Of a stretch of DNA of 64,000 bases, positions 18,565 through 64,000 are shown one piece after another. The notes below the pieces were generated by a model, which worked only from the letters and a program-made list of their open reading frames with translations, had not been told where the DNA came from and searched no databases. Numbering within the stretch: the stretch's first letter is position 1; each line of letters starts with the position of its first letter. A program made the position numbers and the translations under genes. Source of the stretch: Candidatus Kuenenia stuttgartensis (GTDB lineage Bacteria; Planctomycetota; Planctomycetia; Pirellulales; UBA1268); NCBI GenBank assembly GCA_945865325.1, contig CAMBFA010000001.1, positions 6,645-70,644 of the forward strand, given 5' to 3'.

Positions 18565-18689
18565 GGTCTATCCGAGCGACTGGCGCTCTCCCCTGCTGCT
18601 TCTTGAAAATTGTCTTGTCTGATGTCAACTGTGTTGTCCGAGATGTCTAACGCCCTGGATGGCTCTAAAGCCCCCGAGCGCGCCCCGGT

Positions 18690-19547: not shown

Positions 19548-19606
19548 GGCTTCGGAAACTCTTGTGTCTTGTGGTTCGCGGTTGTCTGACTCGCTCGCTC
19601 AACCGA

Positions 19607-19927
19607 TCAAAACAGGTCAATCTTGAAGTCGGGCTTGAGGGTCACGATCGCCTTCTTCCAGGCCTTAGCGCTCGTGCGACGAGTCCGGCTGCGTCGCGCC
19701 TTACCGATGCGATTCTGGACGGCTACCTTCTCGACTTTGACGTTGAACATTTCTTCGACCGCACGACGGATGTCGGGCTTGGTTGCCTCCGTGACAACCT
19801 GAAAGGAGTACGCCCCATTTCGCTGGGCGCGATGCATTCCCTTCTCCGTGACGAGCGGGCGCACGATCACCTGGTGCGAACCGAGACGCGGATTCAGCTT
19901 CGGAGGGGGAGGGACGGGAACGGACAT
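19607..19927 (-). CDS. rplW: 50S ribosomal protein L23
   Basis: QVIVRPLVTEKGMHRAQRNGAYSFQV...DIRRAVEEMFNVKVEKV. Confidence 0.92.
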   Translation of the reverse strand: MSVPVPPPPKLNPRLGSHQVIVRPLVTEKGMHRAQRNGAYSFQVVTEATKPDIRRAVEEMFNVKVEKVAVQNRIGKARRSRTRRTSAKAWKKAIVTLKPDFKIDLF

Positions 19928-19930
19928 GAA

Positions 19931-21498: not shown

Positions 21499-21739
21499 GT
21501 AGTACGCCGTCGAAACGCCCCACCCCACGCCATGCGGGGAGCCGGGGTCGCCTCTCGTTCACGCTCGAAGTTGCTGGCTGCGGGAGCACCTGACTACCCT
21601 CTCCGCAAGGAAAGGATCACCAAGCCTTACCCACAACGCCTTCCAAGCATGCCGTGTCGGACGCTCCTGAAAGTGTTGAAAAAACGCTAAACACAACCGC
21701 CTGGCCTTCGGCGAGAACCCCCGCCGACCGCGCCTACGA

Positions 21740-22066
21740 TCACCGCGATGAAGCCTTGATTTTGATGTCGACGCCCGCCGGCAGACTCAACTTATTGAGC
21801 GCCTCGATTGTCTTCGCCGTCGCCTGCACGATGTCGATGACACGCTTGTGAGTGCGGATCTCGTACTGCTGACGAGCCTTCTTGTCGACGTGAGGACTCG
21901 AGAGGACCGTATATCGCTCGATCCGCGTCGGCAGCGGAATTGGCCCATGAACCTCGGAATTGGTGCGCTTGGCGGTATCAACGATCTCTGCAGCACTCTG
22001 ATCGAGCACGCTGTGATCGTAGGCCTCCATGCGGATACGAATGATTTCTTGGGTCGGCCCTGCCAC
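21740..22066 (-). CDS. rpsJ: 30S ribosomal protein S10
   Basis: [40 protein letters not shown] is canonical S10. The track ORF starts at GTG 22123; the in-frame GTG at 22066 gives a normal 108-aa product. Start uncertain. Confidence 0.9.
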
Positions 22067-28770: not shown

Positions 28771-30621
28771 TCACATCTTGCGGACAGTGCCGATGCCGAG
28801 CAGTTCCAGCCCCTTCCGCAGGACCCGGCCCGTCAGATCGCACAGCGCCAGCCGGCTGGAACGCTCCGGTTCGGCGCACTTCAGGATCGGCAGGGCGTCA
28901 TAGAAGGTCGAATAGCAGCAGGCAACGTCGAACAGCCAGGCCGTCAGAACGTTCGGCCGGTAGTCTGCCTCGACGTCCTCGAGGACCTCGCCGAAGCGGG
29001 CGATCTCGAGGGCCAGGGCACGCTCCTTCGGATCGGCAAGCACGATCGGCGCGGCTAGCCTGCGCAGTTGCTCCCGATCAACGTTTCCCTTCTTGAACAC
29101 CCCCTCGTCCCGGGCGACCGCATACTGCATGTAGGCGGCGGTGTTCCCCTTGAGCTCGAGCATCTTGTCGTAGCTGAAGACGTAGTCGGTGGTCCGGTTC
29201 TGGCAGAGATCGGCGTACTTGATCGCCCCGATGCCGATCGTCTCGGCGACATGCTGCCGCTCAGCGGCCTCGACGGAATCGTCGGCGGCAGCGACCGCTG
29301 CGGCCCGCTCCACCCCCTCGTCGAGGAGCGATTCGAGCCCCACGGTGTCGCCGGCCCGGGTCTTGAACGGCTTGCCGTCGTCTCCGAGCACGGTGCCGAA
29401 GGCGACATGAACGAGGTCGACCCCGTCGATGCCCCAGCGCTTCGCGGTCGCGAACAATTGGTCGAAGTGCTGCCCCTGCCGATGGTCGACGACGTAGAGG
29501 ATCCGGTCGGGCTTCCAGTGCTCGAGCCGCCAGCGGATCGTCGCCAGATCGGTTGTCGCGTAGAGGAAGGCGCCGTCGGCCTTGCGGATGAGGAACGGGG
29601 GCTTGTCGTCGCCGTCGAGGAAGACTCCTATCGCGCCGCGGCTCTCACGGGCCAGCCTCTTTGCCTCGAGATCGGCGACAACGCCGGCCAGCAGCGGCTG
29701 GAAGAAGCTCTCCCCGAGGGTGTGATCGAAACGGACATCAAGACGCCGGTAGAGACGCTCGATGTCCCCCAGGCACGCTGGCATGAACCGCTCCCAGAGG
29801 GCCCGGTTGTCGGCATCCCCTTCGTGCAGCCGGGCCGTCTCGAGCAGAACCTCGCGACCGGCTTCGGGGTATTTCGCCGCCAGGGCCGCAATCGACGGAT
29901 CGGCGGCGATCTCCTCCGGCTTGCCGTCGGCGAGTTTGCGGACGGTGCGGTAGATCCGCCCCAACTCGCCGGTGGGATCGGCGGCGAAGGCGGCCTCGTC
30001 GCCGAACCGCTTCCATCCCCAGAGGATCATCCCGAATTGCGTACCCCAGTCGCCGAGGTGGTTGTCGGTGATCGTGTGGTGGCCGCGGAAGCCGAGGATC
30101 CGGGCCAGCGCGTCTCCGATCACCGTCGAGCGGATGTGGCCGACGTGCATCGGCTTGGCGACGTTCGGCGAGCTGAAATCGATGACGATCGTGTCGGGAT
30201 CGGCGACGGCGGGGACCCCGAGTCGTTCGTCGCGGCAGGCGGCCGAGACCGCGGCGGCGAGGGCCTCGTCGCGCACCCGGACATTGATGAATCCGGGCCC
30301 GACGGGATCACCGGGAGGGGCGAACGCTTCCGTAAAGCCAGGCGCCTCCGCCAGGCGACGGGCGATCTCGATGGCGATGTCGCGCGGTTTCTTCCCCGCC
30401 TTCTTCGCCAGCCCCATCGCCATCGGACCGGAATAGTCGCCGAACTTGGCGTCGGCTGTCTCCCGGACCTGCTCGAGGAGCGCGGGGATCTCCGCGGCGT
30501 CGATCGCCACGACCCCATCGGCAGCGAGGCCGTGGAGCGCTGCCGAGAAGCAGCTCCGCAGCCGGTCGCGGAACGTCCCGGCAGAGGCGGGTGCGGTGGG
30601 CGGTGCAGCGTCGCCCACCAT
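28771..30621 (-). CDS. argS: Arginine--tRNA ligase
   Basis: SSPNVAKPMHVGHIRS (HIGH-type motif), anticodon-binding C-terminus ending ...GIGTVRKM. ATG at 30621 overlaps the rsfS TGA (TGATG); the track ORF extends to 30690. Confidence 0.92.
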   Translation of the reverse strand: MVGDAAPPTAPASAGTFRDRLRSCFSAALHGLAADGVVAIDAAEIPALLEQVRETADAKFGDYSGPMAMGLAKKAGKKPRDIAIEIARRLAEAPGFTEAFAPPGDPVGPGFINVRVRDEALAAAVSAACRDERLGVPAVADPDTIVIDFSSPNVAKPMHVGHIRSTVIGDALARILGFRGHHTITDNHLGDWGTQFGMILWGWKRFGDEAAFAADPTGELGRIYRTVRKLADGKPEEIAADPSIAALAAKYPEAGREVLLETARLHEGDADNRALWERFMPACLGDIERLYRRLDVRFDHTLGESFFQPLLAGVVADLEAKRLARESRGAIGVFLDGDDKPPFLIRKADGAFLYATTDLATIRWRLEHWKPDRILYVVDHRQGQHFDQLFATAKRWGIDGVDLVHVAFGTVLGDDGKPFKTRAGDTVGLESLLDEGVERAAAVAAADDSVEAAERQHVAETIGIGAIKYADLCQNRTTDYVFSYDKMLELKGNTAAYMQYAVARDEGVFKKGNVDREQLRRLAAPIVLADPKERALALEIARFGEVLEDVEADYRPNVLTAWLFDVACCYSTFYDALPILKCAEPERSSRLALCDLTGRVLRKGLELLGIGTVRKM

Positions 30622-31025
30622 CACGTCGCCGCTCCGAGAGACGGCAGGGGGACGCGACGGGCCTCGCTCCAGAGGTGCTCCAGATCCCAATAGTCTCGGG
30701 CCTCGGCATCAAAGAGTTGGATGACGACGTCGCCGTAGTCGAGGACGATCCACCGCCCCTCGTCATACCCCTCACCGCCGCGCTTGCGGTCGTTCCACTC
30801 CCGCTTCATGACCGTCTCGATCTCGTCGGCCATCGAGTGGATCTGCCGACGGCTCGTACCGGTGACGACGACAAAATAATCGAACATCGGCGTCACCTCC
30901 CGCAGATCGAGGATGCGGATGTCGGTGCCGCGGGTCTCCTCCGCGATCCGCGCGGCGGCCAGGGCACGCTCAAGGGCCGGAGCGAGCGGGGGGGCCGCAG
31001 AGGGATCAGCGGAGGATTTCACCAT
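30621..31025 (-). CDS. rsfS: Ribosome silencing factor RsfS (iojap family)
   Basis: TDIRILDLREVTPMFDYFVVVTGTSRRQIHSMADEI...WIVLDYGDVVIQLF. Confidence 0.9.
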   Translation of the reverse strand: MVKSSADPSAAPPLAPALERALAAARIAEETRGTDIRILDLREVTPMFDYFVVVTGTSRRQIHSMADEIETVMKREWNDRKRGGEGYDEGRWIVLDYGDVVIQLFDAEARDYWDLEHLWSEARRVPLPSLGAAT

Positions 31026-39035: not shown

Positions 39036-40991
39036 TCAGCGCCAATCCTTCCCCGGCAGCTTTGTCGGCCACTCGTCGTCGGTGAGCCACACGAGCGATG
39101 TCGACGTCGAAGCCAGGCCGGCGGCCTGCTTCGGCTGAGCGGCGGTGATCGCCGCCGAGCCCTCGGCATCGACACTGACACGGACCTGCTCGAAGTCGAC
39201 GTCCGACGTGCACTGGCTCTGGTGGCGCGACGGCCGGAATCCGGCCGGCACCTTCCCGAGCACCGCATCGATCCGCTTCTTGCTTCGAAGACCCGCAAGC
39301 GAGAGCTCGACGGTGTCGCCGATCCGACGAAGGACGGCGTTGTCGAGCCGGGCAGCATCGGGCAATCGCAGCAGCGCCGTGATGTCACGGGCACCAGAAC
39401 GGAGATCGCTCCCGGCAGCCCCCCGCTCTCCCTTCGGACCAGCTGGCCCCACCGCACCAGCCTTCCCGTCGACGCCGTTCTTGCCGTCCTTGCCGGCGGG
39501 GCCCACTGAGCCAGCCTTGCCATCGAGGCCGTTCTTCCCGTCCTTGCCAGACGCACCGGCCGGACCGGCCTTCCCGTCGACGCCGTTCTTGCCATCCTTG
39601 CCCGCGGGGCCCACTGAGCCAGCCTTGCCATCGAGGCCGTTCTTCCCATCCTTGCCAGACGCACCGGCCGGACCGGCCTTCCCGTCGACGCCGTTCTTGC
39701 CGTCCTTGCCCGCCGCACCGGCCAGGCCAGGCTTCCCGTCGACGCCGTTCTTGCCGTCCTTCCCGGCAGGGCCAGCCACGCCGGGCTTCCCATCAACGCC
39801 AGCCTTGCCATCGAGGCCGTTCTTCCCGTCCTTGCCAGCCGCACCGGCCAGGCCAGGCTTCCCGTCGACGCCGTTCTTGCCGTCCTTCCCGGCAGGGCCA
39901 GCCACGCCAGGCTTCCCGTCAGCGCCAGCCTTGCCATCGAGGCCGTTCTTCCCGTCCTTGCCAGGCGTGCCAGCAGGGCCAGCCACGCCGGGCTTCCCGT
40001 CAGCCCCAGCCTTGCCGTCGAGGCCGTTCTTCCCGTCCTTGCCAGACGTGCCAGCAGGGCCAGCCACGCCGGGCTTCCCGTCAGCGCCAGCCTTGCCGTC
40101 GAGGCCGTTCTTCCCGTCCTTGCCAGACGTGCCAGCAGGACCGGCCACACCGGGCTTCCCGTCGGCGCCAGCCTTGCCGTCGAGGCCGTTCTTCCCGTCC
40201 TTGCCAGACGTGCCAGCAGGGCCAGCCACACCGGGCTTCCCGTCAGCGCCAGCCTTGCCGTCGACGCCGTTCTTCCCGTCGACGCCGTTCTTCCCGTCCT
40301 TGCCGGGCGCGCCGTCCTTCCCGTGAAGGCCGTCCTTCCCTGCGGCGCCTGCGGCGCCCGCCAGGCCACGCTCGCCAGCAGGGCCAGCCACACCGGGCTT
40401 CCCGTCAGCGCCAGCCTTGCCGTCGAGGCCATTCTTCCCATCGACGCCGTTCTTCCCGTCCTTGCCGGGCGCGCCGTCCTTCCCTGCGGCGCCTGCGGCG
40501 CCTGCGGCGCCCGCCGGGCCACGCTCACCAGCCGGTCCGGCCACGCCGGGCTTCCCGTCAGCGCCATTCTTGCCGTCGAGGCCGTTCTTCCCGTCCTTGC
40601 CGGGCGCGCCGTCCTTGCCGTGAAGGCCGTCCTTCCCAGGAGCACCAGCGGGGCCCGCCGGGCCACGCTCACCGGCGACACCGGGCAACCCACGCTCCCC
40701 CTGCAGCCCCGTCGCACCAGCGATGCCACGATCGCCGGAGATTCCCTTCTCCCCCTTGGCACCGTGAGCCCCACCGCCGATGCCGATGAGATTCGCGACA
40801 CTGGAGGCAAAACCCTTGCCGTGCCAGAGGTTCAACTCCCGCCACTTCTCAAGATCCTGATCCCACACCCACAGCAGGCCGGCATGCTCCTCATACCAGG
40901 CATCGCCCACGGCTCCATGGCGGGGCAGGCTGGTGCGGTCGTCAATCAGTCCATGAACGGTCTTGATCGGGGGAAACTTCAAAAGGGACAC
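39036..40991 (-). CDS. Collagen-like triple-helix repeat protein with non-collagen N- and C-terminal domains
   Basis: 152 consecutive Gly-X-Y triplets (track-ORF residues 141-596), flanked by a ~73-aa N-terminal and a 122-aa C-terminal domain. The likely start is GTG at 40991, preceded by AGGAG 7 nt upstream. The track ORF runs to 41192 through low-complexity non-coding-looking sequence. Confidence 0.85.
   Translation of the reverse strand: MSLLKFPPIKTVHGLIDDRTSLPRHGAVGDAWYEEHAGLLWVWDQDLEKWRELNLWHGKGFASSVANLIGIGGGAHGAKGEKGISGDRGIAGATGLQGERGLPGVAGERGPAGPAGAPGKDGLHGKDGAPGKDGKNGLDGKNGADGKPGVAGPAGERGPAGAAGAAGAAGKDGAPGKDGKNGVDGKNGLDGKAGADGKPGVAGPAGERGLAGAAGAAGKDGLHGKDGAPGKDGKNGVDGKNGVDGKAGADGKPGVAGPAGTSGKDGKNGLDGKAGADGKPGVAGPAGTSGKDGKNGLDGKAGADGKPGVAGPAGTSGKDGKNGLDGKAGADGKPGVAGPAGTPGKDGKNGLDGKAGADGKPGVAGPAGKDGKNGVDGKPGLAGAAGKDGKNGLDGKAGVDGKPGVAGPAGKDGKNGVDGKPGLAGAAGKDGKNGVDGKAGPAGASGKDGKNGLDGKAGSVGPAGKDGKNGVDGKAGPAGASGKDGKNGLDGKAGSVGPAGKDGKNGVDGKAGAVGPAGPKGERGAAGSDLRSGARDITALLRLPDAARLDNAVLRRIGDTVELSLAGLRSKKRIDAVLGKVPAGFRPSRHQSQCTSDVDFEQVRVSVDAEGSAAITAAQPKQAAGLASTSTSLVWLTDDEWPTKLPGKDWR
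39405..40772 (-). repeat. In-frame tandem repeat region encoding the Gly-X-Y stalk
   Basis: 9-nt periodicity throughout. Nested higher-order units include 81 bp x ~4 (39888-40205; GKDGKNGLDGKAGADGKPGVAGPAGTS) and 108 bp x 2 (39495-39710). Several other frames on both strands stay open for 0.7-1.8 kb here, as a by-product. Confidence 0.9.
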
Positions 40992-41210
40992 GAAAAAACT
41001 CCTGTTTTCGGATGAGTTTTGGCAGGGCTCGGGGCAGAAACCATGGGGCTCACCACGCAAGCACCGAAGCCAGCACAGCCCCCGCAGTCCCCGGAAAATA
41101 CCAATCTCTCCCGGGAAATCAAATGAGAAAGATCGGCCAGCGCGGCCAGATCCAAGGCGGGGGCAGAACAGTCCTGCCGAGGGGCTACCCACAGGAGCCG
41201 CCCAGAGGAG

Positions 41211-42575
41211 TTACCAACGTCCCTCGACCGCCAGACCGCCGAGATCGGCGATCGGCAGGGGGACAACCCGCACCACCATCGAGTCAAAGTGCATTTCCGT
41301 CCGGCTGACGGCCACCGAACTGGCAAACGCCAGATACCAGCCAAGGAACACTTGCGACGGATAGTGGGCGTTGTCGGTCATCCGGGAAAAGCCAACGAAC
41401 GTCGAGCAGACGTACAGCCCCCCCTTGGCCCAGGGATTCTCCACCATCTCAGCCGCGGCCAGGAAAGGAATCGCCCCGATGAAAGCATGTCCGCTGACAC
41501 CGTTGTTGTCGTTGAACATATGCCATTGGCTGCCATAGCCGTCGACCGGGCGCGACGCGCCGGTGGCGAGTTGGAGGACGTAGAGGGGAGGGGCCCCGAC
41601 GACGAACATCCGCAGCGACCTCGACCCCCATTCACCGATGATGTCGCCGGTGGGATTCCCCTCGAGGATGATGCCGGTGATCGCGGCAGCGCCGAACACA
41701 GGGAGGGCATAACGCCCCTCGCCGATATCCTTGCAATTGAGGAAAAACGTTCCCACGTCGGTCGGCTCGACGCCGTCCATCCACGCCGTCTGCATCGTCG
41801 TATCGAAGCCGGTGTTCGCCATCAGGGCGCCGGCACCGAATGCGGCGGTGAGGCAGACGAGGCTGTCGCACGAATAGAAATTGCGGTAGTCCTCCACGAC
41901 TTTGTAACCCGTTCTTGCCAGGCGGGGATAGGCGCTGTGGGCCCACGGGGGCTCACGATCCGCGATCCCGTCGATCCCGTCGCTGGAAAGCCGGGGGAGT
42001 GAGTAGATCGGCTCGGCCGCCGGAGCCAATCTGGCGACGAGCATCGTCGTCACGTCGCGGCTCCCGGAGAGCGGCTGCTCTGTCCGCCAACCGCCGATCA
42101 GTTCCACGCGTCCCGGTCCCGCGGGCGCGTGGGCCTCGGCGATCGACTGCGTCTGGAGCATCGCTTCGATCCAGGCCCCCGTCGCCCCAGGGGAGAAGCG
42201 GACAATGAGTCGCTGCCGGCGCGGCGGCGAGAGGCCCGGACTGGTGGGGATGACTCCCGGCACGAGCGGCTCGGCCGGCGGTTCGACCCACGCCGATTCG
42301 ATTACCCCCTGCCCCGATGAACGGTCTGCGAAATCGGGCTCCACGACCCTCGCCAATGGCCATTCGGCTGCCACCGAAGCCCGGGTCTCACGCCACAATT
42401 CCTGCGGATCGGTGTCGGGGATGAACATGCCCCCCGCTTCCATCGTCGCAGCCGAACGCTCCTCGGCCCACAACGCCCCCTCTCCGGCACCGCTGGCTAG
42501 GAGCAACAAACACCCCAGGGCCATTCCCCGTGAAGGGCGGCAGCGGGCGCGACGGTGGCGGAGCGGTGGACTCAT
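41211..42575 (-). CDS. PAP2-superfamily-like membrane protein with ~230-aa N-terminal extracytoplasmic domain
   Basis: Signal-like MALGCLLLLASGAG. The C-terminal half has several hydrophobic helices, GVSGHAF (PAP2 motif 2, SGH) and FSRMTDNAHYPSQ (motif 3, SR-x5-H-x3, with Q where Asp is usual). Confidence 0.6.
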   Translation of the reverse strand: MSPPLRHRRARCRPSRGMALGCLLLLASGAGEGALWAEERSAATMEAGGMFIPDTDPQELWRETRASVAAEWPLARVVEPDFADRSSGQGVIESAWVEPPAEPLVPGVIPTSPGLSPPRRQRLIVRFSPGATGAWIEAMLQTQSIAEAHAPAGPGRVELIGGWRTEQPLSGSRDVTTMLVARLAPAAEPIYSLPRLSSDGIDGIADREPPWAHSAYPRLARTGYKVVEDYRNFYSCDSLVCLTAAFGAGALMANTGFDTTMQTAWMDGVEPTDVGTFFLNCKDIGEGRYALPVFGAAAITGIILEGNPTGDIIGEWGSRSLRMFVVGAPPLYVLQLATGASRPVDGYGSQWHMFNDNNGVSGHAFIGAIPFLAAAEMVENPWAKGGLYVCSTFVGFSRMTDNAHYPSQVFLGWYLAFASSVAVSRTEMHFDSMVVRVVPLPIADLGGLAVEGRW

Positions 42576-54243: not shown

Positions 54244-56604
54244 TCATTGCCGCACCATCCGCCACGCCCGGTGGATCCGTTCATTGCGGAAATCCTCGGG
54301 GATTGTGCGGTTGGTGATCTCCCGGAAGCTGAAATCGGCCGCCAGTGTGGCCTCCGCCAAGTGAAAGCGGCGGAAGTTCGTGGAGAAGTAAACGGTACCG
54401 CCTGGGGTGAGATTGCGGGCCACCAAGGCGAGGAGCTCGGCATGGTCGTGCTCCACATCCCACGGCATCTCGCTGCGGGCCGAGCGGGAGAAGGTGGGGG
54501 GATCAACGACGACCAGATCGAAAGGGGGCTCGCCGCGGCGGGCCCGGTGTTCGAGGAAGGCGCGGGCATCGTCGCGGACGATCCGGTGGCGACCGGCATC
54601 CTTGAATCCGTTGACGGCGAGGTTCGTGCGTGTCCAGTCGAGGTAGGTGTTGGAGAGGTCGACGCTGACCGTGTCGGTCGCCCCGCCGGCCGCCGCGTAC
54701 ACCGAAAAACTCCCGGTGTAGGAGAAGAGGTTCAGCATCCGTTTCCCGGCGGCCTCGTCCCTGACCATGCCGCGCGTGACCCGGTGATCGAGGAACAGAC
54801 CGGTGTCGAGGTAGTCGGAGAGATTGACCTCGAACGACAGCCCCCCCTCCCTGACCTGGAGGAGCGCCTCGCGGCCATCGACCTTCTCGTATTGCCCCCC
54901 CTCGCGCTGCCGACGCCGGATCTTCAGGAAGGTGCGGTCGTGGGGAACACCGAGCTCCGCGGCGGCCGCCTCGATCATCCGGTCGAGCCAGACTTCATGC
55001 TCGATCTCGGTGCGATCGTGGGGGCGTTCGTACTCGGCGGCATGGAGCCAGCCGGCATACCAATCGATGACCAGCGGCACCTCGGGGATGTCACGGTCGT
55101 AGATCCGGAAGGCATCGGTGCCGATGCGCCGCGCCCACTTGGAAAGATGCTTGAAGCGTTTGGCAAGACGCCGGCGGAAGTCGCCGATTTGGTCTTCGAC
55201 GGGCCTCGTGCCGCTCCGCGGCGGGCCCGCCGGCCTGCCAGCGGGGGGAGCGGAGAGGGGTGGAAGGGGAGCGTCGAGGAGCGAGTCCGGTGCGTCGAGT
55301 GCGTCGAGTGCGTCGAGTGCGTCCGGTGCGTCGAAGGCATGCGCTGCCGGAGCCGGAGGCCGCTCGGTCTCCGGCGGCAGGTGCGGGCGCTGACGGATCT
55401 CTACCTCGAGGAGCCGGCAGGCGATCGGGCCGTTGGGGAGATAGACGCGGTGAGTGGGCCGGAGCCCGAGGTAGCCGGCGACCGGCGTATCGGGGGCGAG
55501 AATGGCTGCGTGCCATCCGCCACCGGCGCGCACGAGCCAGTCGCCGATGCGGCGGAAGAGAGCCCCGGCGCGGGGGAGTGCAAGGCGCTCGCCATAGGGG
55601 GGATTGGTGACGATCAGGCCGCTTCCCCCCGCAGGCACCGCCTGCTCAAAGTGCTTCTGTTCAATCGTCAGCGCCGCCGACACACCGGCTGACTCGGCAC
55701 ACAAAGCCGTCGCTTCGACGGCTTTGGGGTCGAGATCGCTCGCCTGGAAACTGCCCGGGGGGGTGATGACGCGGGCCTCGAGCTCTGCGACGAGCCGGTC
55801 GGCGAGGTCGCGGTCACAGTCGCGGAACCGGAAAAAACCATGCCCCTTGCGGCGGGCCCGCCACAACCCCGGCGCCATCCCCGCGGCGATCGTCGCCGCC
55901 TCGACGACGAACGTCCCCGAGCCGCACATCGGATCGAGGAGCGGCTCGCCTGGGGTCCAGCCGGTGATGGCGAGGATCCCGGCGGCGAGGACCTCGGAGA
56001 GGGGAGCGTCGACTTCCCCCGTGCGCCAGCCGCGCTGGTGGAGCGACTTACCGGCGGCGTCGCGGAAGATCGTCGCGGTGTCGCCGACGAGGTGGAGCGC
56101 GAGGCGGAGCGTCGCGCCGCGCAGTTCGACGCTCGGCCGCCGGCCGCTCGGCGTGCGGAGTTGATCGACGACCGCGTCCTTGACGATCTGGGCAGCGTAC
56201 AGCGAATGATTGAGGAACGTGTCGTGGATCGCCGCATCGACCCGCAGGGTGTCGGAGACCTTCAGTTGCTCGCGCCAGTCGACCTGCTCCATCGCAGCGT
56301 ACAGGCTCTCGGGGCTCTCCACCCGGAAGCGGCCGAGTGGCTCAAGGACGCGGATCGCCGTCCGGCTCTCGAGGACGGCCCGATAGAGCGTTTCCTTCTC
56401 CTTTCCCGGCGGCGTCGAGAATTCGATTGTCCGCCGGCCGATCCGCAGGTCGGTGGCGCCGATCGCTTCGAGCTCCCGGGCAAGGACCCATTCGAGCCCC
56501 TCGAGTGTCCGCGCCGTCATCCGCGGCGGCTCGTCGGCAATCGGCGCCGGGAGCGGACGGGGAACGGGATGGACGGGGGGGAACGGCGCAGGCATGGCGG
56601 GCAC
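54244..56604 (-). CDS. rlmL: Bifunctional 23S rRNA methyltransferase RlmKL-like (THUMP + two class I MTase domains)
   Basis: THUMP-type N-terminus, IVTNPPYGERL motif, second SAM-MTase half (LNLFSYTGSFSVYAA, DPPTFS). 786 aa with a Pro/Ala/Asp-rich linker. Confidence 0.85.
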   Translation of the reverse strand: MPAMPAPFPPVHPVPRPLPAPIADEPPRMTARTLEGLEWVLARELEAIGATDLRIGRRTIEFSTPPGKEKETLYRAVLESRTAIRVLEPLGRFRVESPESLYAAMEQVDWREQLKVSDTLRVDAAIHDTFLNHSLYAAQIVKDAVVDQLRTPSGRRPSVELRGATLRLALHLVGDTATIFRDAAGKSLHQRGWRTGEVDAPLSEVLAAGILAITGWTPGEPLLDPMCGSGTFVVEAATIAAGMAPGLWRARRKGHGFFRFRDCDRDLADRLVAELEARVITPPGSFQASDLDPKAVEATALCAESAGVSAALTIEQKHFEQAVPAGGSGLIVTNPPYGERLALPRAGALFRRIGDWLVRAGGGWHAAILAPDTPVAGYLGLRPTHRVYLPNGPIACRLLEVEIRQRPHLPPETERPPAPAAHAFDAPDALDALDALDAPDSLLDAPLPPLSAPPAGRPAGPPRSGTRPVEDQIGDFRRRLAKRFKHLSKWARRIGTDAFRIYDRDIPEVPLVIDWYAGWLHAAEYERPHDRTEIEHEVWLDRMIEAAAAELGVPHDRTFLKIRRRQREGGQYEKVDGREALLQVREGGLSFEVNLSDYLDTGLFLDHRVTRGMVRDEAAGKRMLNLFSYTGSFSVYAAAGGATDTVSVDLSNTYLDWTRTNLAVNGFKDAGRHRIVRDDARAFLEHRARRGEPPFDLVVVDPPTFSRSARSEMPWDVEHDHAELLALVARNLTPGGTVYFSTNFRRFHLAEATLAADFSFREITNRTIPEDFRNERIHRAWRMVRQ
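55290..55334 (-). repeat. 9-bp tandem repeat (about 5 units of gtgcgtcga) inside the rlmKL linker
   Basis: The plus strand reads gtgcgtcga gtgcgtcga gtgcgtcga gtgcgtccg gtgcgtcga, encoding DAPDALDALDALDAPD on the minus strand. Confidence 0.85.
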
Positions 56605-56761: not shown

Positions 56762-56820
56762 GAATCCATCCAGGCGTTCCCCGCGGCACCATGCGTCCAT
56801 CGATCGCAGAGCCCCACCCC

Positions 56821-57060
56821 ATGAAGACGGTGTCGTTCACAGAGTTCCGTGCGAATGCGGCCTCATATCTCGATGATGTCGAGCGGGGTCAGACCGTGAT
56901 CCTCCTCCGGCATGGCAAACCGATCGCCGAGATTCACCCGGTGACGGCGGCGGCGGGGCGTGCACCGTCGTGGCAACGTGCCGGGCCACGGCTGGTCGTG
57001 AAGGGGACCGGGCTCGCGGCGGCGATCCTGGGGGAGAGAGGACGTGAAGACGTTTTTTGA
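56821..57060 (+). CDS. Type II antitoxin, Phd/YefM family
   Basis: MKTVSFTEFRANAASYLDDVERGQTVILLRHGKPIAEIHPV. This is only the last 79 aa of track ORF 55840..57060; the rest is antisense to rlmKL. Confidence 0.85.
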   Translation: MKTVSFTEFRANAASYLDDVERGQTVILLRHGKPIAEIHPVTAAAGRAPSWQRAGPRLVVKGTGLAAAILGERGREDVF

Positions 57061-57457
57061 CTCCTCAGCGTTCGCAAAGCGGTTCGTTGAGGAAGCTGGG
57101 AGCGATGCGGTCGAGTCGCTGTGCCTCGGTGCCGGAGAACTCGGCCTGTGTGTCATCTGCATTCCGGAAATCGTGTCGGCCCTGGCTCGGAGGCTGCGCG
57201 AGAAACGAATCACCGCCGCACAGGCCGCGCTGCTCGAGCGGCATCTCCTCGATGACGTCCGCGATGCGTCGATCATCGATCTCACGCCGGAGGTGATCGC
57301 GGAATCGATCGCGGCGATCAAGGCATCGCCCCTCCGCGCCGCCGACGCCCTCCACGTCGCCGCCGCAAAAGTCTGGCGTGCCGATCTCTTCGTCACCGCC
57401 GACGACCGCCAACTCACGGCCGCCAGGAAAGCCGGATTGACCGTTAGAGCGGTGTGA
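57044..57457 (+). CDS. vapC: Type II toxin VapC (PIN-domain ribonuclease)
   Basis: GTG start. FFDSSAF (first acidic residue), ADALHVAAA and FVTADDRQL acidic positions. Overlaps the antitoxin by 17 nt. Confidence 0.85.
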   Translation: MKTFFDSSAFAKRFVEEAGSDAVESLCLGAGELGLCVICIPEIVSALARRLREKRITAAQAALLERHLLDDVRDASIIDLTPEVIAESIAAIKASPLRAADALHVAAAKVWRADLFVTADDRQLTAARKAGLTVRAV

Positions 57458-57599: not shown

Positions 57600-58925
57600 A
57601 TGTCGGGCATGAAACATTTATCGCTCCCCACCGTGGCCCGCGTGCTCCTCCTTGCCTATGCCGTCGCCGTGATGCCGGCCGGGCCCCTGCCCTCTCCATC
57701 GGCCCGCGCCGATGAGCCGGCGGCGTTTGCCATCCCCGACTCCGACGACGGCCTCCCCGGCGCCGGCCCGATCCGGCGCTCCGACTGGTTTAAGAACCTG
57801 TGGAAAGAGCGGCGCGGTGAGTGGGCCGGCAGGAAGGCTGCCGACAAGCGGGCCCTCGTGTTCCTCGGTGACTCGATCACGCAGGGCTTCGGTGACGATT
57901 TCCAGGGGGCCTTCCCCGGGGCGAAGCTCGCCAATCGCGGCATCAGCGGCGACACGACCCGCGGCATGCTCCTGCGCCTCGCCGACGATTGTCTGGCCCT
58001 CGATCCCGCCGGCGTCGTCATGCTTATGGGCACCAACGACCTGGAGGAAGGGGCGGAGCCGGAGACGATTGCCGGCAATGTGAAGGCGATCATCTCGGCC
58101 ATCGAATCAAAGAACCCGCGGACGCCGATCATCGTCTGCCAGGTCTTCCCCAGCGCTGCCGACAAGCAGCGCCCGGCCGAGAAGATCAAGAAGCTCAACG
58201 CGCTGGTCGCCGAGCAGGTGAAGGGGGACCCGCGCGTCCGTCTCGTCGACACCTGGACACTTTTTGCCAACGGCGACGGCGATGCGAAGGCGGAGGAGTT
58301 TCCCGATCTCCTCCATCCCAACCCGAAGGGCTATGCGAAGTGGGTGGCCGCGATCAGGCCAATCCTCGAGACGCTCGATCTCGTTCCGACCCCCGCAGAC
58401 GATTTCCAGCCCGAACCCGGCTTCGAACTGCTCTTCAATGGCCACGACCTCACTGGCTGGGGCTACCGCGATCAGCCGACGCTCGGCAAGCAGCTCGATC
58501 TCGACGGCTGTGAGAGCAGCCCCGATGGCCGCTATGTCGCCAAGGATGGCCGGATCGTCGTCACGACCCCGCCGGAGGGCCGCCGCGTCGAGCAGCTCTG
58601 GACGACGCAGGAGTTCCCCGGCAACTTCGTTCTCAAGCTCGAGTTCCGGGCCACGCCGACCGCCGACAGCGGCGTCTTCATCCGTGCCCCGCAGCTCCAG
58701 TGCCGCGATTATCTGCTCGCCGGCCCCTACAAGGAGCTGAAGCACTACAAGCCCCAGGACTGGAACGAACTGGTGATCACGGTCATCGATGGCAAGGCTC
58801 TGTGCCTGTGCAACGACGACATCCTCGAAGTGGCGCTGCCGGTGCCCGAGACCGGCCCGATCGGCCTCGAAGGGGATTCGGGCCAGCTTGAGTACCGGCG
58901 GATCCGGATCACGAAGCTCCCCTGA
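57600..58925 (+). CDS. Secreted SGNH/GDSL hydrolase fused to a DUF1080 (3-keto-disaccharide hydrolase-like) domain
   Basis: Signal peptide. SGNH blocks FLGDSITQG, GISGDTT, MGTNDL, DLLHPNPKGY. C-terminal LLFNGHDLTGW...GPIGLEGDSGQLEYRRIRI is typical of DUF1080. Confidence 0.85.
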   Translation: MSGMKHLSLPTVARVLLLAYAVAVMPAGPLPSPSARADEPAAFAIPDSDDGLPGAGPIRRSDWFKNLWKERRGEWAGRKAADKRALVFLGDSITQGFGDDFQGAFPGAKLANRGISGDTTRGMLLRLADDCLALDPAGVVMLMGTNDLEEGAEPETIAGNVKAIISAIESKNPRTPIIVCQVFPSAADKQRPAEKIKKLNALVAEQVKGDPRVRLVDTWTLFANGDGDAKAEEFPDLLHPNPKGYAKWVAAIRPILETLDLVPTPADDFQPEPGFELLFNGHDLTGWGYRDQPTLGKQLDLDGCESSPDGRYVAKDGRIVVTTPPEGRRVEQLWTTQEFPGNFVLKLEFRATPTADSGVFIRAPQLQCRDYLLAGPYKELKHYKPQDWNELVITVIDGKALCLCNDDILEVALPVPETGPIGLEGDSGQLEYRRIRITKLP

Positions 58926-58934: not shown

Positions 58935-60632
58935 TCAGCGGCCGCCCCGGCGCCAGGGGGCGAGGGTCATAGGATCCCACTGGGAGGTCCGTTCGTCGGC
59001 GGCATCCAACTGCGGCCCGCCCTCCCGGTAGCCGTGCTCCTCCATCGCCGTCCGGAGGTCCGACGGCGACACGTTCCTCGGGTTGTCGAGGAGGAGAGTC
59101 ACGACATCGTCGGCCGTCACCGTGCCGATGGCCGAAACATCAGCGAGCGCGACGACAGGCAAGTCGGGGCGGAGATCGATCAGGTTGCGGAGCAGGAAAC
59201 CCCGACGAAGGTCGTTGGTGACGACCGTTCCCGACCAATCACAGGCCTTCGTCCAAGCCGTCGGCATGGCGGGCTTGAGATCGAACGACTGATCGATGAG
59301 CCCCGGCCAGCTCACGATCGATTGGAGCAGTTGCAGCGTCAGAGCGATGACGGCGAGGCGGGGGGGAACGAGATTGCCGACGGCGAGAACAAGAAACACC
59401 GTGGCCAGCGGCCAAATGTACGAAAAATACTGCCCCCGGAAAGCGTGGGGGGGAGAGACCCCGGTGAGGTAGAGGATCGCCGTGAAGAGGACGAACCAGG
59501 CAAGCACGACGGCATGACGGACCTTGGGGTCGGTCAGCGTCCACCCCCCCGAACCGTCCCCGGCAGCACCCCCCCGCCGCCCGGCGAGCCGGAGGCCACC
59601 GGCCACCATCATGGCCGCCAACCCGATCGCATAGACCGGCCAGAGCGAACGCCAGAGCGTGAAATACTCAGCCGCACCGCGCGCCAGGAGTTTGACTCGC
59701 ATGGGAGCCATGGCGGCGAGGCCCTCCGCATTGCCGGCCACGGCGGGCCGCGCGGCGGCCTTCATCCGCAGGAATTCGAAAAACTCCGGGTAGAGGAGGA
59801 GAAAAATCGCGACCGCCACGGCCCCGGCGGCGAAGTACCGCCGCGTCTGCCCTCCGAGTCGATCGATCGCCATCACCATGAGGGCCCCGGGCACCATCGT
59901 GATGACAAAGAAATAGTGCGTCAGCATTCCGGCGGCGCACACCAGGCAGAACAGCACCGTGATCCACGGCCCACGCTCGCCGGCGATGATCCGATCCCCG
60001 AGCTCCAGCGCGAAAAGGACGAGGACGGCGAAGAGGGAGTAATGGCGGGTCTGGAACTCAATGCCCATCACGGCAGGGGCGCAGAACCACACCGCCGCAC
60101 AGACCAGCCCCACCCGATGGCTTCCCGAGAACCGCCGGCCGAGGCGGTAGACGAGCCCGAGGGTCACCAGAGCGATTGCCAGGTTGATCGCCGACTGATT
60201 CTGGGGCGTCAAGCCGAGGAGCACGTGTTGGACGTGCAGGCCCCAGAAAAAGAGCGGGGGGTGGATGTCCGTCAGGGCCAGATCGCGAGCGACCGTCCGG
60301 AAGGCGAACGAGCCGGGCCGCTGCAGAAATGACTGGAGCTCCGCCGCCGGCACGGGGCGGTTCGCCAGACCGGGCAGCTCCGCAACAAACCGCGACTCAC
60401 TGGCCGCCGCAGAGAGCCATGCGATCGACTCGTCGTGCGTCAGACCTTCCTTGACATTCGTCACGGCGTGGATCCGCACAAGGAGCGCCGCCACGATCAC
60501 CAGCCAGAGGAGCACCGCGGCAAATCGCCCCTTCGCGGAGGCCCCCTTGCGGGAGGACCGCGCCGGCGGTCCCCCGTCCCCGCGGGCGGCTGTCGAGCCA
60601 TGGGTCATCAAAGCACTCCTTGAAGGTTTCAT
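58935..60632 (-). CDS. GT-C fold membrane glycosyltransferase (ArnT/PMT family 39-like)
   Basis: 565 aa with more than 10 hydrophobic helices. First-loop acidic motif GLTHDESIAW. A soluble C-terminal ~120 aa. Last gene of the DprE-like operon. Confidence 0.7.
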   Translation of the reverse strand: MKPSRSALMTHGSTAARGDGGPPARSSRKGASAKGRFAAVLLWLVIVAALLVRIHAVTNVKEGLTHDESIAWLSAAASESRFVAELPGLANRPVPAAELQSFLQRPGSFAFRTVARDLALTDIHPPLFFWGLHVQHVLLGLTPQNQSAINLAIALVTLGLVYRLGRRFSGSHRVGLVCAAVWFCAPAVMGIEFQTRHYSLFAVLVLFALELGDRIIAGERGPWITVLFCLVCAAGMLTHYFFVITMVPGALMVMAIDRLGGQTRRYFAAGAVAVAIFLLLYPEFFEFLRMKAAARPAVAGNAEGLAAMAPMRVKLLARGAAEYFTLWRSLWPVYAIGLAAMMVAGGLRLAGRRGGAAGDGSGGWTLTDPKVRHAVVLAWFVLFTAILYLTGVSPPHAFRGQYFSYIWPLATVFLVLAVGNLVPPRLAVIALTLQLLQSIVSWPGLIDQSFDLKPAMPTAWTKACDWSGTVVTNDLRRGFLLRNLIDLRPDLPVVALADVSAIGTVTADDVVTLLLDNPRNVSPSDLRTAMEEHGYREGGPQLDAADERTSQWDPMTLAPWRRGGR

Positions 60633-60662
60633 CCCAAACGATCTCCTCCCGGCTCACCCGAG

Positions 60663-61436
60663 TCAGAGCTTGAGACGCTTGAAGATCGCCTCGGGGATCG
60701 CACCGATCACCGTCATCACCGGCCACCAGAACCAGGGAGTGTAGAGGACGTCCTGGCGGCGGAGGATGGCCCGCTCGATGTCGCGGGCGACGGTATCCGC
60801 GTCGGTCGCCAGAGGGGAGCGTGCGGCCGCGAGCCCCTCGGTCATCGGTGTTCGCACAATCCCAGGCTTCACTGTGATCACAGCGACGCCGCGGGGATGG
60901 AGCCGATTCCTCAACCCGGAAAGATAGGCCGTCAATCCGGCCTTCGCCGCGCCGTAGGTGTAGTTGCTCTGCCGCCCGCGATCGCCGGCCACCGAGGAGA
61001 TGGCGGCGAGAAACGCCCCGGGCCGATCCTCGAGCGCTCGGGCCGCGGCGGCCAGAACCATCGCCGCCGACGTGAATCCGGTATCGATCGCGTCGCGGGT
61101 CTGCCCGACATCGAGCAGGGCCCCCGACTCGTCGGGGAGCGTTCCATGACAGATGATAATCCCGTCGAGCGGCGCGCCGAGCAGCGCCGCAGCGGCTCCG
61201 AACAATCCCGCCACCGCCGCACCGTCGGAGGGATCGAACACCAGCGTGGCGACGGTCCCGCTGCCGCGGACCCGCAGATCATCGGCGAGCGGGGCCAGCC
61301 GTGCCGCGTCGCGACCGGTGACCACGAGATTCCAGCCCCGCGCTACGAGCCTCCGCCCCAGCGGGCGTGCGATACCCGACGTCGCCCCGACAAGGATCAC
61401 ATTGCGGGGGGCATCCCGTTTCGGGGTACGGCTCAT
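60663..61436 (-). CDS. DprE2-like SDR (polyprenyl-phospho-2-keto-pentofuranose reductase)
   Basis: ILVGATSGIA Rossmann motif, YGAAKAG catalytic motif. The C-terminus VLYTPWFWWPVMTVIGAIPEAIFKRLKL parallels the mycobacterial DprE2 tail (..[20 protein letters not shown], recalled from memory). Confidence 0.75.
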   Translation of the reverse strand: MSRTPKRDAPRNVILVGATSGIARPLGRRLVARGWNLVVTGRDAARLAPLADDLRVRGSGTVATLVFDPSDGAAVAGLFGAAAALLGAPLDGIIICHGTLPDESGALLDVGQTRDAIDTGFTSAAMVLAAAARALEDRPGAFLAAISSVAGDRGRQSNYTYGAAKAGLTAYLSGLRNRLHPRGVAVITVKPGIVRTPMTEGLAAARSPLATDADTVARDIERAILRRQDVLYTPWFWWPVMTVIGAIPEAIFKRLKL

Positions 61437-61473
61437 GAACAGTTTCCTGGAACACGGGATGGGGAGCGGGGCG

Positions 61474-62835
61474 TCAGGCGGGGGTGATTCCCAGGCGCCT
61501 CGATTGGGAGGAGGCGAACAGGCCGGCCGGGTCGTACCGCCGCTTCACGGCGAGAAACTCGTCGAGACGCGGATACATCGCCCGGAAGGTGGTTCCATCC
61601 ATGAGTGCGTCCTTGGCGAGGTAGAGACGGCCGCCGTGCTCAAGGAGAATCCTGTCGAGACGGCCGCAGAGGGCCTCGATCACGCCCCGCCGGTAGGGAA
61701 TGTCGAGGGCGAGCGTGTGCCCAGGCTCGAGAAACGACAACATCGAGCCATCGGCCGGCCCACAACTCTTGAGCACGGCGAGGAACGAAGCAGCGCCGCT
61801 GGCCACGATGGTGGAGAGCAGTTCGCGGAGGCCGTCGAGCGAAGATTTCCGAGGAAAGAACGCCTGATACTGAATGAATCCGCGGGGGCCGTAGAGGCGG
61901 TTCCAATGACGGATGGAATCGAGCGGATAAAAGAACGTGTCGAGATCGACGACCTTGCGCCGATTCCCGTGCGCGGCGTAGAAGACTTCGTTGAAGACCC
62001 TCACACTCAAGCTATTGAGCAGGCCCACCGGCGGCGTGAAGGGGACCGACTTGACCCTTTTCCGCGGCAGCCCGAACGGATCCCGCCGGGCCTCGGGCGA
62101 CAGTTCGCCGAGCGGGGTGTTTCTCCCCTGCATCACGACACTCCGTCCCATCGCCCGCCCTGAGGCCATGCAGTCGATCCAGGCCACCGAATGCTCGCTG
62201 CCGGCATCCCCGGACTCGAACACCGTCAGGGTCTCCTCGAGGTCGGCGGTGCGATGGTAGTCGACGGTCACGCGCGACGTCTCGACCCGCACGAGCCGAA
62301 AACAAGCGGCCATGATCATGCCGGTGAGCCCCATGCCGCCGAGGGTGGCATGGAAGAGGTCCGCGTTCTCGCCGCGCGAACAGCGCACCACGGTCCCGTC
62401 GGCCACCATCACGTCGATCCGCTCGACGAACATGCCGATCGACCCGTGCCGATGGTGGTTCTTCCCGTGGACGTCGGCCGCGATGGCCCCCCCGACGGTC
62501 ACGTACTTCGTCCCAGGCGTCGTCGGCAGGAACCATCCGCGCGGCAGGAAGAGGGCGATGATCTCGGCGAAACTGACACCGGCCTCGACGTCGAGGAGCC
62601 CCGATTGCGGATCGAAGCCCCGAAAGCGATCGATCCGCGCTGTCTCGACGACCGTGCCCCCCGCGACGAAGGCCGAGTCTCCATAGGCCCTGCCGAGCCC
62701 GCGGGCGATGAGGCCGGCCCCGTGATCCCCCTCCACAACGCGTGCCATCCCCGCCCGGTCGGCCGGGGTCGCGACGACGGCGTCGCCAACGGGAAATCTC
62801 CCCCATCCGCTCAACGTCTGGGGAGCGGGGCTCAT
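61474..62835 (-). CDS. DprE1-like FAD-dependent oxidase (polyprenyl-phospho-ribofuranose 2'-oxidase)
   Basis: LSGWGR, ARGLGRAYGDS, PGTKYVTVGGAIAADVHGKNHH, GGMGLTGMI, FYPLD...WNRLYGPRGFIQYQ and GGRLYLAKD track Mtb DprE1 along its length (from memory). Confidence 0.8.
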   Translation of the reverse strand: MSPAPQTLSGWGRFPVGDAVVATPADRAGMARVVEGDHGAGLIARGLGRAYGDSAFVAGGTVVETARIDRFRGFDPQSGLLDVEAGVSFAEIIALFLPRGWFLPTTPGTKYVTVGGAIAADVHGKNHHRHGSIGMFVERIDVMVADGTVVRCSRGENADLFHATLGGMGLTGMIMAACFRLVRVETSRVTVDYHRTADLEETLTVFESGDAGSEHSVAWIDCMASGRAMGRSVVMQGRNTPLGELSPEARRDPFGLPRKRVKSVPFTPPVGLLNSLSVRVFNEVFYAAHGNRRKVVDLDTFFYPLDSIRHWNRLYGPRGFIQYQAFFPRKSSLDGLRELLSTIVASGAASFLAVLKSCGPADGSMLSFLEPGHTLALDIPYRRGVIEALCGRLDRILLEHGGRLYLAKDALMDGTTFRAMYPRLDEFLAVKRRYDPAGLFASSQSRRLGITPA

Positions 62836-64000
62836 GCTGCCACCCCCTCTCGCACCAGGCCCGCGATGATCACGAGGCAGAAACAGACCCCGGCAATGCA
62901 GAGGCTGACCCGGTCACGGATGGCGAAAACCACGGGATCCTCGTCGAGATGACCGCGATGCACGAGGAGCCAGACGCGGGTGATCCAGTAGAGCACCAGC
63001 GGACAGATGAGCCAGAGGATCCGGCTTTCCCCGTAGAGAATGTGCATTTCGGGGCTGTTCATGTAGAGCGCGAGGACAAGCACCGACACGTAGCCACTGG
63101 CCGCACCGAAGCCCTCGAGGATGGGAAGATCCTCGACGAGATAGCCGCGCCCCGCTGGCCGATGCCCCCCATCGGAAGCGTGCCGTCGGAGCTCGGCACA
63201 GCGCTTGGCAAACGCCAATGACGTGAAGAAGAACAGTGAAAAAGCGAGGATCCACATACTCAACGGCACACCGGCCGCGATCCCGCCGGCCTCGACTCGG
63301 ACGGCATACATCCCCGCGAGCATCAGCACGTCGAGAATCGGCTTCCGCTTCAGCCAGGTGGAGTAGGCGAGATTGGTGGCCATGTAGACCACGAGGATCA
63401 GGCCGAAGGCCGGCGTGAGGACGATGGCGGAGATCATGGCGGCCCCGAGGAGCAGCCCCGCCCCGGCGGCGACGGCCCAGGTGATCGGCAGTCGGCCGCT
63501 CGCCAAGGGGCGATGACGCTTCTTGGGATGCTCCCGGTCGGCAGGCAGATCGGCGATGTCGTTGACGACATAGACCGTCGAGGCACAGGCGGAGAATGCC
63601 ACGAAGGCCCAGATCACCGCAGTGATCGTGGCGACGTCGAACTTGTGCGCCAGGATCATCGGCAGGAAGACGAGGAGATTCTTGACCCACTGATGGGGCC
63701 GCAGGGAGCGGAGGAGCGACCGTGGAATACTGCGACGTTCCCCGATCACCTCAACCGGCTTGCCAAGCTCGCGCACGCGCCGCTCCAACCCGGCGGTCGG
63801 CTCGACAACGATGACGAGGTTCGCCGCCCGCCACAGGGGGATATCGGCGCTCGCATCCCCCGCATAGGAAAAACCGTTGCAGCCGTTGGCCCGGACCCAA
63901 TCGGTGACCGCCTGGAGTTTCCGTGCCCCCTTGAGATTGACCCCCGCATGGGAAGCGAGGACGGCGTCAAACAGCCCCAGATCGGCCGAGATCCGCGCTG
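62832..64000 (-). CDS. HAD-IB phosphatase-like domain fused to UbiA-family polyprenyl-phosphate phosphoribosyltransferase (5' end beyond window)
   Basis: The UbiA part has LRPHQWVKNLLVF and NDIADLPADREHPKKRHRPLASG (Rv3806c-like). The same frame stays open upstream of the track start (TTG 63788) to the window edge, encoding ...GFSYAGDASADIPLWRAANLVIVVEPTAGLERRVRELG, the last HAD-IB motifs. Confidence 0.75.
   Translation of the reverse strand, partial: ARISADLGLFDAVLASHAGVNLKGARKLQAVTDWVRANGCNGFSYAGDASADIPLWRAANLVIVVEPTAGLERRVRELGKPVEVIGERRSIPRSLLRSLRPHQWVKNLLVFLPMILAHKFDVATITAVIWAFVAFSACASTVYVVNDIADLPADREHPKKRHRPLASGRLPITWAVAAGAGLLLGAAMISAIVLTPAFGLILVVYMATNLAYSTWLKRKPILDVLMLAGMYAVRVEAGGIAAGVPLSMWILAFSLFFFTSLAFAKRCAELRRHASDGGHRPAGRGYLVEDLPILEGFGAASGYVSVLVLALYMNSPEMHILYGESRILWLICPLVLYWITRVWLLVHRGHLDEDPVVFAIRDRVSLCIAGVCFCLVIIAGLVREGVAA

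Follow-up and report, generated by a model that had tools for sequence, protein, structure and literature searches.

A planctomycete operon predicted to direct extracytoplasmic D-arabinofuranosylation of an envelope target

The stretch of contig CAMBFA010000001.1 analysed here (64,000 nt, referred to throughout as the window) contains at one end, in the region 58935-64000, four tightly packed, co-directional open reading frames (ORFs) on the minus strand. Their products resemble the enzymes that make a lipid-linked D-arabinofuranose (Araf) donor, together with a membrane glycosyltransferase of the GT-C fold. In the direction of transcription the genes are as follows.

62832 to >64000, minus strand: fusion of a HAD and a UbiA domain (HAD-UbiA); the frame is still open at the window end, and the C-terminal 388 of its 492 aa lie inside
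61474 to 62835, minus strand: DprE1-like FAD oxidase, 453 aa; its ATG overlaps the HAD-UbiA stop codon by 4 nt (ATGA)
60663 to 61436, minus strand: DprE2-like short-chain dehydrogenase/reductase (SDR), 257 aa; a 37-nt gap separates it from the DprE1-like gene
58935 to 60632, minus strand: GT-C glycosyltransferase, 565 aa counted from the first ATG; a 30-nt gap separates it from the SDR gene

Homologues of the GT-C protein begin at its M9 (position 60608), which is likely to be the true start and would give a protein of 557 aa and a gap of 54 nt to the SDR gene. An exact-match look-up with the oxidase returned metagenome contigs that are identical to the window and reach past its end. On one of these (L001) the complete 492-aa HAD-UbiA gene occupies 5213-6691, and a gene for a PfkB-family kinase (323 aa, same strand, L001 4217-5188) ends 24 nt upstream of it. 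The operon probably starts with this kinase gene, one gene further upstream and past the window end.

There are several informative features of the HAD-UbiA protein. First, on NF006088, the NCBIfam model for HAD-UbiA fusions (cutoff 351), the full protein reaches 568 bits, and it matches both Pfam UbiA and Pfam HAD. Second, its best solved relative is the Rv3806c structure 8J8J (E=5.9e-35), and the VNDxxDxxADREHPxKRxRP loop is kept. Third, when it is aligned with eight homologues drawn from five phyla (A3), the HAD motifs D18-x-D20-G-T (DLDGTL), K131 and G151/D156 are invariant, as are the UbiA residues N250, D251, D254 and D258 (N-D-x-x-D-x-x-x-D), K369, R370 and E373. HAD motif I (D18-x-D20) falls past the window end and was read from the identical contig L001; D18 corresponds in position to the catalytic D18 of Citrobacter youngae ORF15, for which both polyprenyl-phosphate phosphoribosyltransferase (PPPRS) and phosphatase activities have been shown in vitro (Kelly et al. 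2024, PMC11127046). The Asp-rich loop and the HAD aspartates support a predicted phosphoribose phosphatase (PRP) fused to a PPPRS.

The oxidase matches Pfam FAD_binding_4 and ALO, and aligns with Mycobacterium tuberculosis DprE1 over residues 7-449 (E=2.8e-102), with the equivalents of DprE1 H132, K134 and K418 all kept. The SDR matches Pfam adh_short and is 41.5% identical to the SDR of the Tateyamaria cassette; in the PDB nothing but M. tuberculosis DprE2 matches it below 1e-15 (E=1.2e-21), and the two align end to end. These full-length alignments and the retained catalytic residues support the assignment of the pair as a DprE1-like polyprenyl-phospho-ribose 2'-oxidase and a predicted 2'-keto reductase. 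A separate observation concerns Cys387 of M. tuberculosis DprE1, the covalent target residue of benzothiazinones. The residue aligned to it in the oxidase is Ala, which, by analogy with naturally resistant mycobacteria, predicts that the enzyme would be insensitive to these compounds.

The fourth protein has no Pfam or NCBIfam match (PMT_2, PF13231, is not found even at E<=10, against a gathering threshold of 26.1 bits); phmmer against the PDB returned spurious G-protein-coupled receptor matches alone (E>0.2), and the profile of its family alignment A1 returned nothing there. Relatives are nonetheless plentiful: a word-indexed search found 19, and with a profile run against 1.84 billion representatives the family extends to 7559 clusters at E<=1e-3, or to 438 when the limit is tightened to E<=1e-30. 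PMT_2 is passed (27.6-53 bits) by homologues with 29-36% identity and by many further family members, which suggests PMT_2 membership of the window protein by transitive homology. The predicted fold agrees. An AlphaFold (AF2) model built with 13 sequences was unusable (mean predicted local distance difference test score, pLDDT, 59.9) and one built with 133 sequences was used instead (pLDDT 91.9, predicted template-modelling score 0.91). It has about 12 transmembrane (TM) helices; its first extracytoplasmic loop is helical, and a small alpha/beta domain forms the C-terminal part (approximately residues 458-562). The 34 best Foldseek matches to it in the PDB are all GT-C enzymes, the top ones including STT3, AftA, ArnT (TM-score 0.49/0.51), ALG12, ALG9, Pmt4, PglB, EmbA/B, AftB and PimE, and these fold matches, together with the family members that pass PMT_2, indicate that the window enzyme is a GT-C of the ArnT/PMT-like kind. 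Two motifs, T65-H66-D67-E68-S69 and D122-x-H124-P125-P126-L127, lie on extracytoplasmic loop 1; D67, E68, D122, H124, P125, P126 and L127 vary little or not at all over 133 sequences (family alignments A1 and A2), and the D67/E68 pair follows TM1, as is consistent with a terminal transferase of this fold. The enzyme belongs to a large PMT_2-like family in which no characterised member was identified.

The three donor genes recur together in many other bacteria. DprE1 homologues (40-50% identity) are present on 74 plasmid records and HAD-UbiA homologues on 104, carried mostly by Alphaproteobacteria, with some Burkholderia, Acidobacteriota, Bacteroidota and cyanobacteria; the usual plasmid order is UbiA - GtrA - FAD oxidase - SDR - 'hypothetical protein'. 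A HAD-UbiA profile run against metagenomes yielded at least 542 relatives, and 80 loci were kept for neighbour counts. DprE1 lies immediately downstream in 40 of the 80 and DprE2 in 33, and GtrA occurs in 11. A phage collection gave one weak, unannotated UbiA match. The donor cassette (HAD-UbiA, DprE1, DprE2) is common and conserved, this architecture recurring in other phyla, and the terminal transferases differ.

We therefore propose, with a probability of about 0.78, that these genes form an operon for extracytoplasmic D-arabinofuranosylation of an envelope target, a reading founded on sequence comparison. From it we infer a pathway, its lipid, the final configuration of its sugar, the use of the donor by the GT-C transferase and the nature of the acceptor included. 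The UbiA domain, working at the inner membrane's cytoplasmic face, would transfer ribose-5-phosphate from phosphoribosyl pyrophosphate (PRPP) to a polyprenyl phosphate, probably undecaprenyl phosphate, and the fused N-terminal HAD domain would remove the 5'-phosphate to give polyprenyl-P-beta-D-ribofuranose. The DprE1-like flavoenzyme would oxidise C2' and the DprE2-like SDR would reduce the resulting ketone to the arabino configuration. The donor would be flipped by a transporter encoded elsewhere than in the operon, and the GT-C enzyme, its D67/E68 loop facing the periplasm, would transfer Araf to an envelope glycan or protein.

A preliminary description of this DNA had listed four co-directional, tightly spaced genes and had assigned them as Rv3806c-like, DprE1-like, DprE2-like and GT-C enzymes; the ORF coordinates confirm the order and spacing, and the assignments stand at the level of homology and motifs. 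Several points nevertheless weigh against the arabinofuranosylation proposal. First, HAD-UbiA falls below cutoff on three models for decaprenyl-phosphate phosphoribosyltransferase (DPPRS; best 184 against 207 bits), the oxidase does not reach the cutoff of the DprE1 model NF053785 (471.9 against 500), and the SDR does not reach that of the DprE2 model NF053786 (152.6 against 250) and is nearest to the uncharacterised model PRK07102 (262.4 against a cutoff of 267). Profile searches for orthologues of DprE1, DprE2 and Rv3806c had been suggested in the preliminary description as a check, and the answer is divided: all three proteins are homologous over their full length with motifs kept, but the curated NCBIfam equivalog cutoffs are missed, some narrowly and some clearly, so that by this standard they are homologues and not orthologues, and their sequences place them outside the actinobacterial equivalog boundary. 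Second, no MATE, SMR or GtrA flippase gene was found in the operon or the 64-kb window, MATE and SMR not having been searched for directly and a small SMR-sized protein being able to escape the crude TM count; outside the operon, the window's predicted multi-TM proteins are limited to SecY and a LivH-like permease, and tblastn of the window with two GtrA proteins gave a best E of 0.6. The earlier statement that the complete enzyme logic lies in one operon thus holds for the donor enzymes and the GT-C enzyme but not for a flippase. Third, the transferases of other such cassettes (NoeP, the Tateyamaria and Cereibacter proteins, and the GT-C of Rhizobium sp. CCGE531) have no detectable similarity to each other or to the window GT-C. 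Fourth, the host is known from metagenome-assembled genomes (MAGs) only, and the functions rest on homology and gene context.

A fifth point concerns the donor that the GT-C enzyme uses. The commonest neighbour in the GT-C family is a Dpm1-like GT2 (21 of about 77 loci), and a neighbour-joining tree of the family, computed without support values, places the window clade as sister to GT-Cs of Flavobacteriales (30-35% identity), the nearest non-planctomycete relatives, which adjoin Dpm1-like GT2 and STELLO-like genes and not a pentose cassette. From these neighbour frequencies and this sister clade it follows that the donor is not readable from membership of the GT-C family. Together with the dissimilarity of the transferases in other Araf cassettes, they lend some weight to an alternative in which the cassette does make polyprenyl-P-Araf but the adjacent GT-C enzyme uses a polyprenyl-P-hexose made elsewhere, the true arabinosyltransferase being encoded at another place in the genome. 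We consider this unlikely. The GT-C gene follows the DprE2-like gene by only 30-54 nt on the same strand, and no GT2 lies near it. The same GT-C family directly follows DprE2 in a metagenome locus of the order HAD-UbiA - GtrA - DprE1 - DprE2 - GT-C (L103) and lies beside HAD-UbiA/DprE1/DprE2 in three Gemmatimonadota loci (L052, L067 and L073), which makes at least two independent lineages besides that of the window; in two more loci it lies beside HAD-UbiA alone. In the nearest outgroup cassette (L093, HAD-UbiA 59% identical), a PMT_2 GT-C follows DprE2 and ends the cassette. The transferase, moreover, is the variable module in all such cassettes, and its dissimilarity from one to the next is of little help to the alternative. 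Adjacency, gene context and spacing make it likely that the window GT-C is the consumer of the Araf donor made by the operon.

A broader evolutionary scenario can be offered tentatively, and we regard it as doubtful in its entirety: a PMT_2-type GT-C lineage, sister to a clade that works with Dpm1-like polyprenyl-P-hexose synthases, would have been co-opted for a polyprenyl-P-Araf module on at least two occasions, once in the planctomycete clade and once in a Gemmatimonadota/Bacteroidota clade, and in the planctomycete would build the first D-Araf-bearing envelope glycoconjugate of the Planctomycetes-Verrucomicrobia-Chlamydiae (PVC) superphylum, without a flippase dedicated to the cassette and while a PfkB kinase specific to the lineage feeds or regulates the pentose-phosphate supply. 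The Flavobacteriales loci (L012-L024, L030 and L078) deserve mention in their own right: a STELLO-like (PF03385) protein of 336 aa recurs beside the GT-C gene (14 loci), and many of these loci also have the Dpm1-like GT2, constituting an uncharacterised conserved glycosylation module in Bacteroidota.

A second alternative, which we judge very unlikely, is that the DprE1/DprE2-like pair yields something other than D-Araf, such as a retained 2-keto-pentose or ribose formed by re-reduction, or acts on another lipid-linked sugar. The SDR does fit PRK07102 better than the DprE2 model (262 against 153 bits), the oxidase scores under its equivalog cutoff, and auxiliary epimerases are known to diversify the pentose, as with xylofuranose (Xylf) made via a GalE-like enzyme (PMC11127046). 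However, 2'-epimerisation to Araf is the sole characterised outcome of a DprE1 plus DprE2 pair; homologues of the oxidase and SDR (NoeH and NoeO, 46% and 33% identical) belong to an operon that genetic evidence connects with D-Araf on Nod factors; and DprE1/E2 homologues are found specifically in loci of Araf-containing glycans, for example in Stenotrophomonas and Rathayibacter (PMC11127046). The arabino product accordingly remains the preferred prediction.

The block PfkB - HAD-UbiA - DprE1 - DprE2 - GT-C is kept in five of five relatives together with a gene that converges on the GT-C gene:

57600 to 58925, plus strand: GDSL/DUF1080 protein, 441 aa; SGNH/GDSL hydrolase plus DUF1080 (3-keto-disaccharide hydrolase-like) by Pfam; convergent with the GT-C gene and 9 nt from it

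The operon proteins are 79-98% identical over five genome species, with synteny retained. The closest relatives of the GT-C (79-95% identity) come from contigs of Planctomycetota MAGs, which bear the labels Planctomycetia, Planctomycetaceae (Lake Baikal), Pirellulales and, in two further cases, 'Ca. Kuenenia', a label that the 66% G+C makes doubtful. The planctomycete hallmark families PSCyt2/PSD1 and DUF1501 are present in the window, and with these relatives they substantiate the non-actinobacterial context that had been noted for the operon at the outset.

Neither flanking gene appears to be a general part of the system. The PfkB protein comes closest to TIGR03168, the 1-phosphofructokinase/hexose kinase subfamily (202.6 bits, below the cutoff of 216.4), and one possibility is that it supplies sugar phosphate for PRPP. 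Its position upstream of the cassette is kept in the 79-95% identical relatives only; it adjoins none of the 80 metagenome HAD-UbiA loci and no plasmid or Gemmatimonadota locus, and was rejected as a general component. The GDSL/DUF1080 protein has a hydrophobic N-terminus that looks like a signal peptide by eye. Its adjacency is likewise kept in the 79-95% identical relatives only and is absent from the 80 metagenome loci (0 of 80), and it too was rejected as a general component, being lineage-specific and of uncertain membership in the system. A weak echo of this neighbour is seen in the outgroup locus L093 (6974-9531), where a GDSL-like protein and an MBOAT protein are encoded upstream of the cassette, hinting that the target glycan might also be O-acylated.

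On the other side of the operon, past the PfkB gene, L001 has a likely spurious ORF, a DUF1016/YhcG nuclease gene, an ISL3 transposase fragment and a gene for a PEP-CTERM-like protein. This flank differs between relatives, with ISL3 and DUF1016/YhcG at L001 1327-3195 and large opposite-strand ORFs in L010 and L011, and its variability places the operon at a synteny breakpoint. That the genes came together by chance, or persist as an inactive remnant with no present role in glycosylation, as might be argued from this variable flank with its transposase and nuclease genes and from a consensus sigma-70 scan, not designed for Planctomycetota, that gave 0 promoters and intrinsic terminators at background level, is highly improbable in view of the four intact ORFs, their intact catalytic motifs, their G+C content at third codon positions (0.81-0.84, close to that of other ORFs picked in the window) and the identity and synteny kept over five genome species.

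Other features of the window lie apart from the operon. A collagen triple-helix repeat protein (718 aa, 39036-41192, minus strand; Pfam Collagen 242 bits) is a speculative acceptor candidate, bacterial collagen-like surface proteins being often glycosylated. It adjoins the gene of a PAP2-domain protein (454 aa, 41211-42575, minus strand), about 19 kb from the operon and outside it; PAP2 is the family of the mycobacterial decaprenyl-phosphoryl-phosphoribose phosphatase Rv3807c. Between the GDSL gene and an rRNA methyltransferase gene is a PhdYeFM antitoxin/PIN-domain toxin pair (56800-57457, plus strand; L001 12066-12702). The rlmKL-like methyltransferase gene (54244-56604, minus strand) contains five tandem copies of a 9-nt repeat, GTGCGTCGA, at 55290-55334, encoding a D-A-L/D-A-P run in an inter-domain linker; the lengths of 786, 783 and 777 aa for this protein on near-identical contigs suggest copy-number variation of the repeat. 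From about 6000 to 22000 the G+C content is 0.60-0.63, compared with 0.66-0.70, and the GC skew is strongly negative. Adenylate kinase (8992-9618) and SecY (9646-11046) are encoded in this stretch, and after them come numerous short ORFs on the minus strand; the stretch looks like a ribosomal-protein spc/S10 region; genes for EF-G (26640-28739) and arginyl-tRNA synthetase (28771-30690) lie beyond it.

D-Arabinofuranose is best known from mycobacterial cell walls. If the arabinofuranosylation proposal is true, an envelope glycan or protein carries this sugar in some freshwater Planctomycetia; full-text literature searches for DprE1-type biosynthesis of Araf in Planctomycetes returned no report. 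The locus opens no new mechanism and settles no open question. Its interest lies in modularity, a conserved donor cassette with GT-C, flippase and accessory genes swapped around it, which helps in annotating the many clusters that appear in genomes as 'FAD-binding oxidoreductase / SDR / hypothetical protein'.

Comparison with known systems places the operon among several relatives. The mycobacterial decaprenyl-phospho-arabinose pathway (Rv3806c, Rv3807c, DprE1 and DprE2) has the same chemistry as is predicted here. There are five differences. The phosphatase in the window is a fused HAD domain, whereas the mycobacterial one is the PAP2-type Rv3807c; the lipid is probably C55 rather than C50; Ala stands at the position of DprE1 Cys387; the GT-C enzyme has no sequence similarity to the Emb and Aft proteins, resembling them only at the level of fold (TM-score about 0.4); and the genes are in one operon and not dispersed. 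A Gram-negative pathway of similar design feeding a GT-C enzyme is that for D-Araf on group IV pilins of Pseudomonas aeruginosa, likened here from literature descriptions (PMC11127046 and a preprint on TfpW), in which PsPA7_6246-6249 act with the GT-C TfpW on a periplasmic pilin. There the PPPRS has no fused HAD and the phosphatase is separate (PMC11127046), and the acceptor is a pilin, whereas no pilin gene was noted beside the window operon.

Closer in gene order is the noe operon (noeCHOP in Azorhizobium caulinodans ORS571, noeCNHOP in Rhizobium sp. IRBG74), which shares the order UbiA - (GtrA) - FAD oxidase - SDR - transferase. Identities to the IRBG74 proteins are 46.5% for NoeC (UbiA part), 45.6% for NoeH and 32.5% for NoeO. 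Genetic evidence ties this operon to D-Araf on Nod factors, and deletion of noeP abolishes Nod-factor arabinosylation (PMC5080398). In IRBG74 the operon is located among nod genes, next to nodABC, on a symbiosis plasmid. It differs in that NoeC (387 aa) aligns to the UbiA part of the window fusion only, in having the GtrA-family NoeN, and in that NoeP (401 aa) is unrelated to the window GT-C. Both precedents had been invoked in the preliminary description: that of Nod-factor arabinosylation is borne out by this shared order and by donor enzymes 33-46% identical, and that of pilin arabinosylation by literature descriptions (Kelly et al. 2024, PMC11127046, and the TfpW preprint).

The best fit is to the three-component systems of Kelly et al. 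2024 (Kelly, Duong, Nothof, Lowary and Whitfield, PNAS, PMC11127046), in which a PRP-PPPRS fusion works with a MATE or SMR flippase and with a GT-C enzyme (founding GT136) to add alpha-pentofuranoses outside the cytoplasm. In the prototype, ORF15/ORF14/ORF12 of C. youngae O1, and its relatives, auxiliary epimerases set the sugar, and the ribofuranose (Ribf) version of the pathway logic has been established biochemically (PMC11127046). The window fusion has the same domain order, with an N-terminal HAD and a C-terminal UbiA-type PPPRS, and the same D18 and NDxxDxxxD residues; it is 36.9% identical over 472 aa to the homologue in Rhizobium sp. CCGE531, a candidate locus listed by Kelly et al. 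(PMC11127046). Like the Araf variants of this class, the window operon has a DprE1/E2 add-on and a final GT-C. Unlike in the three-component systems, no MATE, SMR or GtrA gene was found in the operon or window by the searches described above, the host is a member of the Planctomycetota and a PfkB gene is upstream. The GT-C enzyme also differs, being PMT_2-like, whereas CDD is reported to class ORF12/GT136 as EpsG-like (PMC11127046); hhalign of the window family (A2) against the GT-C of the CCGE531 locus gave a probability of 0.1%, and the window enzyme, compared with ORF12 by family description, is probably not a GT136 member. Formal description of the class in 2024 (PMC11127046) makes the novelty lower than had first been implied: the operon fits the three-component pentofuranose class, and the locus is not new in kind but a representative of a class already known and widespread.

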